Assembly: GCA_030917725.1 (NCBI GenBank)
Contig: JAUPUE010000034.1
Span: 1-40,150 of the forward strand
Source: Patescibacteria group bacterium
GTDB lineage: Bacteria > Patescibacteriota > Minisyncoccia > Phycocordibacterales > EsbW-18
Direction: 5' to 3'
DNA: 40,150 bases
Shown one piece after another: positions 35,287 to 39,932 of this stretch; position 1 is the stretch's first letter; every line of letters begins with the position of its first letter. The notes beneath the pieces are model-generated. The model searched no databases. It saw only the letters and a program-made list of their open reading frames with translations, and had not been told where the DNA came from. A program made the translations under genes and the position numbers.

Positions 35287-35314
35287 TGAATGCAACTATG
35301 ATTCGTTGTGTTTT

Positions 35315-35333
35315 TTCTTTTGTTCTGCTCAAT
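35315..35333 (+). promoter_or_regulatory. 5' arm of the pre-16S processing stem
   Basis: ttcttttgttctgctcaat is perfectly complementary to 37052-37070 (attgagcagaacaaaagaa). Confidence 0.75.
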
Positions 35334-35357
35334 TATGAAACATGGTGACATGTTTTT

Positions 35358-36926
<1,569 letters not shown>

Positions 36927-37051
36927 ACAAAATGCTCTGATCCCGAAAGGGTAGGAGTTTAGGCGGTCGATATCATGTGCCTCAATTGAGCATGTGATGG
37001 ATCATGATTGAAGATCCTACGAAACAATCTAGACACTCGGGAAAGACTGAG

Positions 37052-37070
37052 ATTGAGCAGAACAAAAGAA
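37052..37070 (+). promoter_or_regulatory. 3' arm of the pre-16S processing stem
   Basis: Perfect 19-nt complement of 35315-35333. Confidence 0.75.
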
Positions 37071-37092
37071 AGGACATATTTCGATACCAAAA

Positions 37093-37116
37093 GGCCGCCT
37101 AACAAGGCGGTTTTTT
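37093..37116 (+). terminator. rho-independent terminator directly after the 16S unit
   Basis: ggccgcc-taacaa-ggcgg-tttttt. Confidence 0.75.
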
Positions 37117-37131
37117 GCTACCTCAGGGTAC

Positions 37132-37159
37132 TTGACAGCAGTCTTTTGGATGTTATAAT
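37132..37159 (+). promoter_or_regulatory. consensus sigma70 promoter TTGACA-N16-TATAAT (cassette D)
   Basis: ttgacagcagtcttttggatgttataat. Confidence 0.65.
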
Positions 37160-37197
37160 GTAATCTGAACAGTACCTTAACTCTGGGGGAGAGAATC

Positions 37198-37356
37198 GTG
37201 GAGCAATTCGATTGGCCAACTTTTGTTGGCAGGGTACTCATCGCCGTCACGGCATTTGGTATCATCCTTCGTTTTCTGTTCTTGCTGGGCGCTCGTAGCG
37301 CTCGGTGGGCAGAAGACAACAAACCGAAACTCACGAAGGCAAAGGAGAAGCTGTGA
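37198..37356 (+). CDS. 52-aa single-TM protein (cassette D gene 1, GTG start)
   Basis: GGGGGAGAG-aatc-GTG. VEQFDWPTFVGRVLIAVTAFGIILRFLFLLGARS.... Not in the ORF track (under 60 aa). Confidence 0.45.
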   Translation: MEQFDWPTFVGRVLIAVTAFGIILRFLFLLGARSARWAEDNKPKLTKAKEKL

Positions 37357-37586
37357 GAGCTGCCGTCTCAGGTATCGGCATGAAACTCATGCCGAGCGAT
37401 TTGCTGGAGGAGGCGAAAGCGAACGAGCCGTTCGCTGTCGTTTCATCTCCAGCATGTGATTGTGGACACATCCTTGCGGATGATTTCACCGCACACCACT
37501 TCACGTGTAAGTCACTCTGGAAGATCATCCAGCTTCCGAGTGGTTCCAAGAGAGTTCACACCGGACTGATCAAGGGGGTCTCATGA
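37353..37586 (+). CDS. ~70-aa soluble Cys/His-containing protein (cassette D gene 2)
   Basis: GTG overlaps the upstream TGA (GTGA), preceded by AAGGAGA. Alternative ATG at 37380. CDCGH...HHFTC motif. Confidence 0.45.
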   Translation: MRAAVSGIGMKLMPSDLLEEAKANEPFAVVSSPACDCGHILADDFTAHHFTCKSLWKIIQLPSGSKRVHTGLIKGVS

Positions 37587-37717
37587 TTCCGATTCTCATC
37601 GTCGTCATCGGTACCATCGCGTTCGTCGCGATGGCCAAGTACCTCAACCGTCGGGACGACAAGCGCCTCGCGCGCCGTCTCCCGCCTAACCAGCGCCACT
37701 TCTTCACGGGGCGCTAA
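37583..37717 (+). CDS. 44-aa single-TM protein (cassette D gene 3)
   Basis: ATGA start/stop overlap, AAGGGGG SD. MIPILIVVIGTIAFVAMAKYL then a basic tail. Confidence 0.45.
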   Translation: MIPILIVVIGTIAFVAMAKYLNRRDDKRLARRLPPNQRHFFTGR

Positions 37718-37726
37718 GGAGAAGCC

Positions 37727-38011
37727 ATGAAAGTGGCCAAACTGATCGTTGTCGTCTGCAAGGCCGGGATCTTCGGAGTGCTTGTGTGGTTCGCTGCGCT
37801 TCTGTTGGCGGCTGTGAACAGCACACCCACTGTGGCTCAGCAGAATCGTTTCGACAGAGAGATGCCGTCGAATATCCTCTATGTCGAGGACGAGGTCGGT
37901 CTCTGCTGGGCGCACTTCTTCAAGTACGGCCAGTGGGTCGACGTCGAGCCGATAGCGTGCACTCCACGAGTGTTGGCTCACCTCGACAAGCACGGCTCGC
38001 CTCTGCGGTGA
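37727..38011 (+). CDS. 94-aa signal-anchored protein (cassette D gene 4)
   Basis: TAAGGAGA-agcc-ATG. MKVAKLIVVVCKAGIFGVLVWFAALLLAAV hydrophobic N-terminus. Confidence 0.55.
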   Translation: MKVAKLIVVVCKAGIFGVLVWFAALLLAAVNSTPTVAQQNRFDREMPSNILYVEDEVGLCWAHFFKYGQWVDVEPIACTPRVLAHLDKHGSPLR

Positions 38012-38042
38012 CCATCACCGACCGGTTCGATTCCGGTCAATG

Positions 38043-38080
38043 CAGTCCGTCCCCTCGGGGAACGGGCTGCTTTATTTTTT
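38043..38080 (+). terminator. rho-independent terminator of cassette D
   Basis: cagtccgtccc-ctcg-gggaacgggctg stem (one bulge) followed by ctttatttttt. Confidence 0.65.
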
Positions 38081-38127
38081 CATTGAGAATATGGGCGCTT
38101 TTTGGTATAGTCTCCTCGCTAGGTAAT

Positions 38128-38201
38128 GCGCGTGTAGCTCAGCTGGTTAGAGCACGTCACTGATAATGACGAGGTCATAGGTTCGAATCCTATCACGCGC
38201 A
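38128..38201 (+). tRNA. tRNA-Ile (anticodon GAU)
   Basis: GCGCGTG-TA-GCTC-AGCTGGTTA-GAGC-A-CGTCA-CTGATAA-TGACG-AGGTC-ATAGG-TTCGAAT-CCTAT-CACGCGC-A. TTGAGA-N17-TATAGT upstream. Confidence 0.9.
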
Positions 38202-38221
38202 CTTTAGTTAATCTTTATTTT

Positions 38222-38731
38222 ATGAAGAAAATCATATTCGCTCTCGGTATCGTCCTCATTATTCTGGGCGCTTGGTTCTTTATGCGGCCTAAGGAGACAG
38301 TCACCCAAGACAACCTTGGCCCTAACCCTGTCTCTGCAAAAGAAACCAAAGTCGGGGATCGAGTCGGAGCGTTTGAGGTTTCAGAGATGCAGGTAGGCCC
38401 TACATCTATCACAGCAACATTTGTTGGCACAGCTACAGTCAACGTTGTTTGTTCATACGGTGATATGTTTGGGTATGTTTGTACGCCTGATGACGAGTCG
38501 GCAAAACAAGCGATTCCAAGATTTACAGAACTTGCAGATATTGGAAGCCAAAAATCTTTCTCTGTTATTGGTGAAGGTACTCCATTTGATTCTTTTAAAA
38601 AGAACTTCGAGATCGCCTCAGGTGCTAATGGGTCATCAGTTCCTCTGCGCATAACAATCACCGATTATGTGACTCGTTCCGGAGATACTACCATTATGTC
38701 CCGCGCAAGATTGGTGGAGGTGGTTGAATAG
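38222..38731 (+). CDS. membrane-anchored or secreted hypothetical protein
   Basis: MKKIIFALGIVLIILGAWFF signal anchor. 169 aa. No SD. Confidence 0.6.
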   Translation: MKKIIFALGIVLIILGAWFFMRPKETVTQDNLGPNPVSAKETKVGDRVGAFEVSEMQVGPTSITATFVGTATVNVVCSYGDMFGYVCTPDDESAKQAIPRFTELADIGSQKSFSVIGEGTPFDSFKKNFEIASGANGSSVPLRITITDYVTRSGDTTIMSRARLVEVVE

Positions 38732-38809: not shown

Positions 38810-39577
38810 TTACTTGGTCGCGAGGACCTGATAGAAGGCCCTGTATCCGATTGACCCCGATGCGTTGCAGGCGATAAGTACATCCTGGGTCATGAGCTGG
38901 TGGAACACGCGCGTCGTCACGAAGCCTTCCTCCTTAAGCTGTTTGGGGAACAGAGAGGCCGGATGGTACCACACGGTTGAATCGAAGATGTTGCCCTCCG
39001 AATCAACGTAGCGTTCTGCGAACCGCTGACTCTGCGTCATCGGTGCGGTCTCCATCGCCTCATACTGCACCCAGGATGCCTGACCCGTTCGTGCCGGACT
39101 GTCCGCCTGAAACAGATCGGGGTGCATTATGGAGACGATCAGGCGACCCCCATACTTGAGTACCTGGTAGGCTTCTCGAAAGAAGCTCTGGCACTCTTCT
39201 GGGGAGTCATGGATGAGGACCGCGATGCAGGCGATGCGGTCGAACGACTCAGACGGGTACGGCAACTCCTTGGTGATGTCGGCTTCATCATAGATGATGC
39301 CGAGGGGCTCGAGCGTCTCGTGTTCGCGGGCGCGGGAGAGCATCGTGGGGCTGCGATCACAACCCAACACTACCGCTCCGTGGTCGCGAACCAGTCTTCG
39401 GGCGATAAAACCCGAACCGCATCCAGCGTCGAGAACGACTTCGCCGGGTTGCGCGTCGAGAATCTTCAGCGAAGGCAGGCGACCGAGGTGGTCGCCAACA
39501 ACGGTGAGACGGTCGCCTTTACCCGTCCACATCACTGCAGAACTGGATTCATAAGGCAGGGTTTCGTCGGGATTCAT
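38810..39577 (-). CDS. class I SAM-dependent methyltransferase (GC-rich, SD-led)
   Basis: VLDAGCGSGFIARRL motif I. AAAGGA lies 8 nt before the ATG at 39577 (longer ORF runs to 39610). TTGACT-N16-TAAAGT upstream on the minus strand. Confidence 0.75.
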   Translation of the reverse strand: MNPDETLPYESSSAVMWTGKGDRLTVVGDHLGRLPSLKILDAQPGEVVLDAGCGSGFIARRLVRDHGAVVLGCDRSPTMLSRAREHETLEPLGIIYDEADITKELPYPSESFDRIACIAVLIHDSPEECQSFFREAYQVLKYGGRLIVSIMHPDLFQADSPARTGQASWVQYEAMETAPMTQSQRFAERYVDSEGNIFDSTVWYHPASLFPKQLKEEGFVTTRVFHQLMTQDVLIACNASGSIGYRAFYQVLATK

Positions 39578-39750
39578 GTGTTCCATCCTTTCAAGGTTGT
39601 GGCGGTCCACGGGTACTTTACATCACTTTTCAATATAGTCAACGTACGTTTCTCTCTTTGAAATGGTACGCGCACAGAAGTCGATTGTTCGATATACTCA
39701 CCAAACGGGCACGTGGCGGAACTGGACTTATAACTTTTCCGAGGCTAAGT

Positions 39751-39832
39751 GAGCGCGTGGCGGAACTGGTATACGCGTACGTCTCAGAAGCGTATGGAGC
39801 AATCCTTGGGAGTTCGAGTCTCCCCGCGCTCA
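39751..39832 (+). tRNA. tRNA-Leu (anticodon CAG), class II with long variable arm
   Basis: GAGCGCG-TG-GCG-GAACTGGTATA-CGC-G-TACGT-CTCAGAA-GCGTA-TGGAGCAATCCTT-GGGAG-TTCGAGT-CTCCC-CGCGCTC-A. Confidence 0.9.
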
Positions 39833-39875
39833 CTTAGCCTCGGATGGCGTACGTCTCAGACCTGTTCGAGTCCAT

Positions 39876-39904
39876 GCCTTGCCGAAGCTTTAGCGAAGGC
39901 AGGT
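39876..39904 (+). repeat. dispersed stem-loop repeat, copy 7 (inside the T-arm of the disrupted tRNA)
   Basis: gccttgc-cgaagctttagcgaa-ggcaggt. Confidence 0.7.
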
Positions 39905-39932
39905 CCCCGTGCCCACAGCCCTTATCACCAGT

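Follow-up and report, generated by a model that had tools for sequence, protein, structure and literature searches.

A four-gene operon behind the 16S rRNA gene

We analysed a 40,150-nucleotide (nt) stretch of DNA from a Patescibacteria group bacterium (hereafter the window; contig C34 of a 63-contig genome of ~0.6 Mb with 86% completeness) and found four small-protein genes, O1 to O4, between the 16S ribosomal RNA (rRNA) gene and the tRNA-Ile(GAU) gene. An earlier note on this DNA had proposed an independent, translationally coupled four-gene unit with its own promoter and terminator, and the analysis supports that proposal. The promoter (37132-37159, plus strand) is the TTGACA-N16-TATAAT site named in the note; it matches the consensus at 12/12 positions, is TG-extended, and scored highest of all sites in the 5.6 kb scanned. 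It is followed on the same strand by O1 (37198-37356; 52 amino acids (aa), GTG start), O2 (37353-37586; 77 aa, GTG start), O3 (37583-37717; 44 aa, ATG start), and O4 (37727-38011; 94 aa). All four open reading frames (ORFs) of the note are thus present, except that O2 had been given as ~70 aa. Its frame is open from 37305, and we place the start at the GTG at 37353, where the N-terminus M[RK]AxVS..G is conserved (MRAAVSGIG aligns with MKA[RT]VSN[FY]GL of the homologues); independent gene callers on other assemblies also picked the 77-aa start.

The intergenic distances of O1/O2, O2/O3, and O3/O4 are -4, -4, and +9 nt, respectively. The overlaps between the O1 stop and O2 start (GTGA) and between the O2 stop and O3 start (ATGA), both noted earlier, can be read directly in the sequence, and the start/stop overlaps are retained in strain variants. 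Purine-rich motifs (GGGGGAGAG, AAGGAGAAG, AAGGGGG, and TAAGGAGAAG) sit 5-9 nt 5' of the starts of the four ORFs. The RNA 3' of O4 can form three hairpins, the last of which is a 12-pair GC-rich stem followed by UUUAUUUUUU; this is the intrinsic terminator of the operon (38042-38080, stem 38042-38070, plus strand). The 81-nt 3' region folds with -39.7 kcal/mol (z = -5.8), which bears out the predicted terminator. In what follows, G-numbers denote the genomes compared (genus members) and L-numbers the loci or contigs compared, including public strain-variant contigs; L006 corresponds to G007, L034 to G002, L035 to G001, L029 to G010, and L033 to G012. The operon terminator is conserved in G007, and the G006 copy shares 94% identity with it.

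The 16S rRNA gene (35356-36925, plus strand; Rfam RF00177, 1363.7 bits), which forms the left conserved flank, constitutes a closed transcription unit, complete with a processing stem and a terminator. Its leader (35309-35333) and trailer (37052-37076) form a 25-nt inverted repeat with 92% complementarity, corresponding to the 16S precursor processing stem, and the trailer block GAGCAGAACAAAAGAAA is invariant or nearly so in 11 genus sequences (the window and ten others). The unit ends with an intrinsic terminator (37088-37117, plus strand; hairpin GGCCGCC/GGCGG followed by a U6 run) that folds with -18.5 kcal/mol (z = -4.9). All genus members aligned have a hairpin and a T-run at the matching position, with differing stem sequences. 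A third promoter-like site, which scored 10/12 in the promoter scan, lies before tRNA-Ile (38083-38111, plus strand). Because of the processing stem, the 16S terminator, and this third site, we interpret the region as three transcription units and not as an rRNA spacer with an insertion. The 23S gene is located on a different contig (C18) from the 16S gene. Unlinked rRNA genes have been reported previously, with Patescibacteria as one such clade (Brewer et al., bioRxiv 10.1101/705046).

Comparative evidence for genuine genes

ORF density was rejected as evidence of coding, as the ORF coverage was equalled or exceeded in 83 of 2000 dinucleotide shuffles (p ~0.04). Because the density is only mildly unusual, the case for real genes rests on comparative evidence. 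Homologues of all four ORFs were found in sister species or strain variants with their frames conserved, and short public contigs with a near-identical 16S trailer hold diverged copies of O1, O2, O3, and O4. The ratios of nonsynonymous to synonymous substitution rates (dN/dS), obtained as Nei-Gojobori estimates, are 0.32 and 0.28 for O1, 0.17 for O2, and 0.33 for O4, and these three genes are under purifying selection. The value for O3 is ~1.1; its frame, hydrophobic segment, and C-terminal tail are nonetheless preserved. In a variant O2 contig, 16 of the 24 listed differences fall at third codon positions. The guanine-cytosine (GC) content by codon position follows a coding-type pattern, with the second position (GC2) lowest. 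No paralogue of any of the four genes is present in the genome.

The earlier note had stated that a lack of conservation of the ORFs or their order in relatives, together with no expression signal, would point to chance ORFs. According to this explanation, a fortuitous promoter-like site precedes reading frames that arose by chance in GC-rich DNA and are not genes. The shuffle result, the lack of a known family match, and the lack of RNA evidence are in its favour. However, the conserved-frame homologues in other strains and species, the dN/dS values of 0.17-0.33 for O1, O2, and O4, and the preservation of the start/stop overlaps in variants all contradict it, as do the invariant CCHC motif of O2 and the confident AlphaFold model obtained for O2 from only five sequences (described below). 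The chance explanation is effectively excluded, because the conservation and selection results refute it. Judged by these sequence comparisons, O1 to O4 are genuine genes.

A standing variable slot between 16S and tRNA-Ile

All nine other genus genomes in which the 16S-tRNA-Ile interval is resolved hold 0.6-2.8 kb of small genes at this position, so the locus is a standing variable site rather than the result of a single insertion. From the 16S end to tRNA-Ile, the interval measures about 630 nt in G009, 750 nt in G004, 790 nt in G005, 870 nt in G012, 1200 nt in both G013 and the window, 1800 nt in G007, 2180 nt in G002, and 2760 nt in G001. The interval always begins with a TTGAC(A/T)-type promoter, which stands at the matching place in G004, G005, G007, and G009, and it contains small genes that mostly encode membrane proteins and differ in their sets between species. 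At the corresponding position 3' of its 16S gene, the sister species G007 carries a five-gene coupled operon, which ends in an O4 homologue preceded by the same AAGGAGAAGCCATG junction as in the window, and also has an O2 homologue. The slot of G002 holds an O2 homologue followed by a protein with two transmembrane (TM) segments. The earlier description of a normal spacer that had been replaced by an insertion is not supported, given this occupancy in all nine genomes, the closure of the 16S unit, and the location of the 23S gene elsewhere.

Variation is also evident among close relatives. Behind near-identical 16S trailers, we observed at least five arrangements: O1-O2-O3-O4 (the window and L012-L014), O1-O3-O4 (L015 and L060), O1-O2-two-TM protein (L037), O1-O2-O3-like (L038), and O1 followed by a 49-aa tail-anchored protein (L059). 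L015 is a mosaic, in which the flanks are identical to those of the window and the O4 DNA is 100% identical, while O2 is absent and the O1 and O3 proteins are 77% and 56% identical to those of the window, respectively. The promoter hexamers are preserved in the strain variants L015 and L037, and the spacer between them has diverged. In metagenomes from wastewater, freshwater, and groundwater, contigs break or join at the gene borders 37350, 37575, and 38009. The locus thus shows two hallmarks of a replacement-type flexible islet, namely differing gene sets between conserved flanks in closely related strains, and mosaic recombination (L015), with metagenome joints falling at gene borders. We consider it very likely that O1 to O4 are a self-contained coupled operon located in a standing site of variable content.

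Two further types of protein were observed in the slots of other species. Soluble proteins of 66-80 aa with an M.[KQ]Y start and a mid-sequence D..A recur in three species (L006 4266-4702 in G007, with two in tandem; L033 3133-3375 in G012; L035 1673-1882 in G001). The copies are only weakly similar (18-24% identity) and have no family match. In G002 (L034 530-1738), G001 (L035 2483-3436), and G010 (L029 406-1557), a secreted protein of 317-402 aa is encoded on the opposite strand directly 3' of the 16S terminator. This protein, which combines a PG_binding_1 domain with long acidic DUF4398-like repeats, does not occur in the window.

Predicted properties of the four small proteins

Hydropathy analysis identified a single TM-like segment in each of O1, O3, and O4 but no such segment in O2. 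This agrees with the earlier description of three of the products as membrane or signal-anchored peptides and of the fourth as soluble with Cys and His, as O2 contains three Cys and four His residues. Scans of O1 to O4 and of the slot proteins of relatives against Pfam, PHROGs, NCBIfam, and PADLOC gave nothing above threshold.

The N-terminus of O1 is acidic and is followed by a TM segment (about residues 13-31; hydropathy maximum 2.47) and a Lys/Arg-rich C-terminal tail. It is the most constant gene of the slot, the others varying in presence; variants with 26-73% identity are the first slot gene in L015, L037, L038, L059, and L060, and G001 holds a related 52-aa protein. O3 consists of an N-terminal TM segment (residues 1-19) and the basic tail AKYLNRRDDKRLARRLPPNQRHFFTGR. 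In its variants in L015, L038, and L060, the tail is conserved and the TM part has diversified. By the positive-inside rule, both O1 and O3 are predicted to be single-pass proteins in the N-out/C-in orientation, with basic cytoplasmic tails.

With their 44-52 aa, single TM segment, and strongly charged C-terminus, O1 and O3 resemble holins and type I toxins in size and architecture, and the earlier note had suggested a holin- or toxin-like module. In such a module, O1 and/or O3 would form pores and O2 or O4 would act as the modulator. The weak sub-threshold match of O1 to the aureocin A53 family (15.8 bits, where the cut-off is 27) and the PG_binding_1 protein beside the slot in G001, G002, and G010 are consistent with it. 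The resemblance is confined to architecture, however: neither a lysin nor a family match accompanies it, and the PHROGs and PADLOC scans are negative. There is no endolysin or other catalytic cell-wall domain; the PG-binding protein has only acidic repeats and is absent from the window. A perfect promoter of the constitutive type and tight coupling would be an unusual arrangement if the peptide were lethal, and we saw no sign of an antisense partner or a repressor. Moreover, the slot variants retain O1 more constantly than any other gene, and its supposed partners are present in some of them and missing from others. A membrane-damaging toxin module is, in our view, rather unlikely.

O2 is soluble, and its residues C35, C37, H48, and C52 are invariant with conserved spacing (CxC...H...C) in an alignment of nine sequences. 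This CCHC arrangement probably represents a zinc site, as it is typical of such sites. An exhaustive O2 profile search of 1.84 billion representative proteins yielded only six true members; one further match, P0011 (928 aa, with Cys-rich repeats), was discarded as a false positive. The family was found in one of the 223 genera sampled in the order and, among 401 genomes of the order, in this genus only. AlphaFold2 modelled O2 from five sequences with a predicted local distance difference test score (pLDDT) of 85.9 and a predicted template modelling score (pTM) of 0.70. Foldseek searches of PDB and BFVD with this model gave no match with E < 0.3, and the SH3-like fragment matches in the Foldseek searches were rejected as noise. 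The gene next to O2 on its 3' side encodes a membrane protein in the window, G007, G002, L037, L038, L042, and L044. Distant O2 members lie in unrelated neighbourhoods, often also followed by a membrane-protein gene. O2 is predicted to be a cytoplasmic protein, usually encoded 5' of a membrane protein.

The recurrence of O2 5' of membrane-protein genes in unrelated contexts and its probable zinc site would also suit a housekeeping role, and strong promoters are common for small subunit genes. The four proteins could then serve a conserved membrane machine as accessory subunits or as regulators, like CydX, AcrZ, or KdpF, or O2 and a membrane partner could form a tiny anti-sigma-like pair. Such a role is difficult to reconcile with gene presence that varies between near-identical strains (O2 is absent in L015, L059, and L060), with families missing from nearly all relatives, and with an O3 that is diversified and not constrained; neither a partner machine nor a sigma factor is encoded nearby. 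We regard a housekeeping role as unlikely, and as less likely than a role in envelope conflict. The membrane micro-complex suggested in the earlier note is possible.

O4 begins with an N-terminal signal/anchor helix, and its predicted mature domain is acidic and comprises ~57 aa. It is 60% identical to the G007 protein (E = 1e-30), and L060 encodes a third member. The alignment of the three (window, G007, and L060) revealed a conserved small-residue site before Gln (TVA/QQ, ADA/QK, and IDA/QK), and the likely signal-peptidase site of O4 lies before QQN. It is followed by a near-invariant domain of ~50 residues with two conserved Cys and the invariant pattern YVEDEVGLCWAHFF...VEPI.CTPRV...LDK. 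These features suggest that O4 is Sec-exported and cleaved to an acidic ~57-aa protein, which is probably disulfide-bonded. The AlphaFold2 model is of moderate confidence (pLDDT 66) and consists of a helix (residues 3-32) and a small beta-plus-alpha domain; Foldseek found no match in PDB with E < 0.3. O4 occurs in this lineage and the G007 lineage only, and a metagenome scan for it gave only G007-type contigs.

Shine-Dalgarno-like motifs and the 16S 3' end

The earlier note had interpreted the purine-rich motifs before the four starts as Shine-Dalgarno (SD) sequences. The motifs are present; the SD role is not established, as the 16S 3' tail (36905-36925) lacks the canonical anti-SD and reads GGAUUUUGUCAAAU where the consensus has GGAUcACCUCCUUu (GGAUCACCUCCUU). 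The anti-SD is absent in the window and in all ten genus sequences aligned, L006 and L029-L036 among these. An anti-SD hidden 3' of a 16S 3' insertion was considered and judged unlikely, as no CCTCC-type match was found near the 16S end. Loss of the anti-SD has been reported for a Parcubacteria subgroup (PMC9297842).

AGGAG occurs upstream of only ~5% of the long ORFs of the genome, and strong AGGAG-type motifs precede every gene of the operon as well as slot genes in G004, G007, and G009. Strong motifs in a lineage without the anti-SD may reflect a foreign origin, or they may have a role in translation or recombination. Strong AGGAG motifs near -12 were also observed at the barrel operon starts 33081 and 34005.

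The right flank and its neighbours

The right conserved flank begins with a hairpin resembling a tRNA T-arm (GACCGG-UUCGAUU-CCGGUC; 38020-38038, plus strand, identified by folding) and includes tRNA-Ile(GAU) (38128-38202, plus strand; ARAGORN and Rfam). The hairpin is present as a single copy in the genome and is 19/20 identical to the T-arm of the tRNA-Ala(UGC) of the genus, and its own flanks are unrelated to tRNA-Ala. It is preserved in G007, and in G006 a gene end unlike that of the window precedes the shared hairpin and terminator. We rejected the idea that the hairpin is left over from a tRNA resident in this genome, given the single copy and the resemblance of the T-arm only. An Rfam search of 36900-38260 at a permissive threshold detected no RNA family except tRNA-Ile.

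tRNA-Ile is co-directional with the 16S gene in the window, G001, G002, G004, G005, and G012 and lies on the opposite strand in G007, G009, and G013. These orientations indicate that the right border of the slot has undergone local inversion repeatedly. The adjoining segment 38203-39677 contains a 169-aa secreted or lipoprotein-like ORF without a family match (38222-38731) and a minus-strand S-adenosylmethionine (SAM)-dependent methyltransferase gene (38810-39610). It is absent from L012 and L013, where tRNA-Ile is almost directly followed by tRNA-Leu, and L059 has the 169-aa ORF; the segment is thus a second indel islet adjoining the slot. tRNA-Leu(CAG) (39751-39833) seemingly interrupts a further tRNA-Leu copy, whose 5' and 3' remnants (GGGCACGTGGCGGAACTGG ... 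GGTCCCCGTGCCCA) flank it at 39700-39915 of the window, and L012 has a single intact tRNA-Leu with exactly the ends GGGCACGTGGCGGAACTGG and GGTCCCCGTGCCCA.

A search of the genome for recombinases found none on C34 and a sole PF00589 (tyrosine recombinase) match on contig C12. A large serine recombinase with a 539-aa open frame is encoded between tRNA-Ser genes (contig C61:1627-2064, minus strand). The assembly encodes no other resolvase-type enzyme, and this recombinase is a candidate for acting in trans in rearrangements associated with tRNA genes.

The earlier note had also considered a mobile-element remnant. In this explanation, a phage or integrative island at the tRNA gene has decayed, the hairpin is its old attachment site, and the small genes are leftover lysis or exclusion cargo. 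The T-arm look-alike and the patchy gene distribution hint at such an origin. Further points in its favour are the position beside a tRNA-Ile whose orientation flips between species, the SD-like motifs unusual for the genome, the serine recombinase by tRNA genes on C61, and the neighbouring segment that is itself an indel between strains. However, the contig has no recombinase, terminal repeat, or second tRNA fragment, and only the T-arm is shared, the acceptor region being unrelated. Searches of 50,697 phage records with O2 and O4 by tblastn revealed no homologue, and PHROGs gave no convincing match. Purifying selection acts on O1, O2, and O4, and the slot is filled in every genus member within a conserved promoter/terminator frame, which suggests a maintained locus and not a scar. 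A decayed mobile element is therefore an unlikely explanation.

Within the 16S gene itself, we observed a hairpin-closed insertion of ~120 nt (36448-36569; inverted repeats I2 and I3). No metatranscriptome contig spans this insertion, the organism being undetectable in those runs.

Proposed role of the operon

The combined reading that we favour, and hold to be moderately probable, is an independently transcribed, coupled operon of four small-protein genes that occupies a standing slot, a replacement-type flexible islet, and encodes a strain-specific envelope or antagonism module. Whole genes would be swapped by homologous recombination, as the mosaic pattern suggests. The near-invariant 16S trailer, terminator, and promoter would serve as the left homology arm, and the hairpin, terminator, and tRNA-Ile as the right one; the shared AAGGAGAAG-type gene junctions are possible internal breakpoints. 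The products would constitute a small envelope module of two membrane peptides, one exported mini-protein, and one cytoplasmic putative zinc protein. The module could act in either of two ways. The exported protein may be an effector, with the membrane partners as immunity proteins that protect the producer, or the module may block the entry of phages or competitors and thereby exclude phage or rival DNA.

The strain-to-strain turnover, the diversification of the O3 TM segment, and the patchy distribution make a conflict or recognition role fitting, and the rare and patchy occurrence of O2 and O4 is as expected for accessory genes. This functional part of the reading is put forward tentatively, and by analogy the module might, with low certainty, serve antagonism or exclusion in a strain-specific manner.

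Several observations weigh against the combined reading. None of the four proteins has a family match (Pfam, PHROGs, NCBIfam, and PADLOC), and neither the O2 model (PDB and BFVD) nor the O4 model (PDB) has a fold match, that could anchor a function, and the argument for antagonism or exclusion draws only on architecture, variability, and analogy. Most membrane-active bacteriocins are not acidic, and the putatively exported O4 domain is; some slot variants lack O4. Four strong SD-like motifs are present despite the 16S gene without an anti-SD and the ~5% frequency of such motifs genome-wide. In the metatranscriptome contigs of one study whose DNA runs contain the organism, it was undetected; the matches were conserved rRNA stretches of other organisms only, and none of them covered its specific regions. 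Finally, we infer homologous recombination from the mosaic pattern, and a site-specific mechanism at the T-arm-like hairpin may operate instead.

Beyond the single locus, the interval behind the 16S terminator might be a dedicated and strongly expressed cassette slot, integron-like but without an integrase, in this lineage of the candidate phyla radiation (CPR) and perhaps in other Parcubacteria-type lineages. We offer this generalization as a speculative one that is, on balance, doubtful. The 16S trailer and tRNA-Ile would provide universal homology arms, with which naturally competent cells could exchange individual genes encoding small envelope proteins between strains and even between species; alternatively, the T-arm mimic could be the site of a tRNA-targeting recombinase acting in trans. 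If so, the cassettes would be undescribed families (a CCHC mini-protein, an exported two-cysteine mini-protein, and membrane peptides with charged tails) that set strain-specific interactions with hosts, phages, or rivals. Unlinked CPR rRNA genes and flexible islets are already known; the literature searched contained no promoter-equipped, exchangeable small-protein slot directly behind a stand-alone 16S terminator with unmatched families.

CPR bacteria have tiny genomes, and their strain-specific biology, such as host attachment, phage resistance, and competition, is mostly uncharacterised. The locus offers a compact, easily amplified marker of strain diversity, as its flanks (the 16S 3' end and tRNA-Ile) are universal primer targets. 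The four mini-proteins are a tractable set, and for two of them the folds or alignments are good enough to support biochemical work. The locus is also a concrete test case for stable-RNA genes as possible recombination anchors of accessory genes, and its strong SD-like motifs in a lineage with an anti-SD-less 16S pose a sharp question about translation.

Comparison with known systems

The stand-alone 16S gene, apart from the 23S gene and with its own promoter, processing stem, and terminator, corresponds to the unlinked CPR rRNA genes described by Brewer et al. (10.1101/705046). That paper describes the unlinking itself and not a promoter-equipped, strain-variable small-protein operon directly 3' of the 16S terminator. 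Extra coding DNA associated with CPR rRNA genes has also been reported, as insertion sequences within the rRNA genes that encode homing endonucleases (Tsurumaki et al. 2024, PMC11270868). In contrast to these, the present operon is positioned past the 16S terminator, outside both the mature 16S and its precursor, and none of its products is nuclease-like.

Like an integron cassette array, the locus has one strong promoter on the left that drives a row of short, promoterless, exchangeable ORFs. It differs in that no integron integrase is present, the sole PF00589 match being that on contig C12. The intergenic distances of -4, -4, and +9 nt also leave no room for attC sites (imperfect inverted repeats of ~60-140 nt). 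Islands that target tRNA genes share with the locus a tRNA-Ile neighbour and a T-arm look-alike at one border; here, however, only 19-20 nt of the T-arm are found, without an acceptor-stem copy, a direct repeat pair, or a nearby integrase.

O1 and O3 are similar to holins and type I toxin peptides in size, in the single TM segment, and in the charged C-terminal tail. Unlike those systems, the locus has no lysin gene in the operon or flanks, no evident antisense partner, and no family match, and its genes are embedded in a coupled four-gene operon behind a promoter that looks constitutive. For a type I antisense RNA, the promoter scan reported no minus-strand promoter-like site within 37132-38080, and no Rfam match was found. 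With regard to Sec-dependent bacteriocins and their immunity proteins, an N-terminal helix and an Ala-x-Ala/Gln-like putative cleavage site are conserved in three O4 members, in which two Cys are invariant; as for similarity to known bacteriocin or immunity families, O4 has no Pfam or NCBIfam match and O1 only the sub-threshold match to aureocin A53.

Replacement-type flexible genomic islands include the O-antigen and capsule loci and the pneumococcal blp bacteriocin-immunity region. Compared with these, the present locus is much smaller (0.6-2.8 kb) and is flanked by stable-RNA genes. It contains no glycosyltransferases, double-glycine leaders, ATP-binding cassette (ABC) exporter, or quorum-sensing genes, and no sequence relationship was found. 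What it has in common with them is a fixed site with conserved flanks, strain-specific gene sets, mosaics, and many small membrane or secreted proteins.

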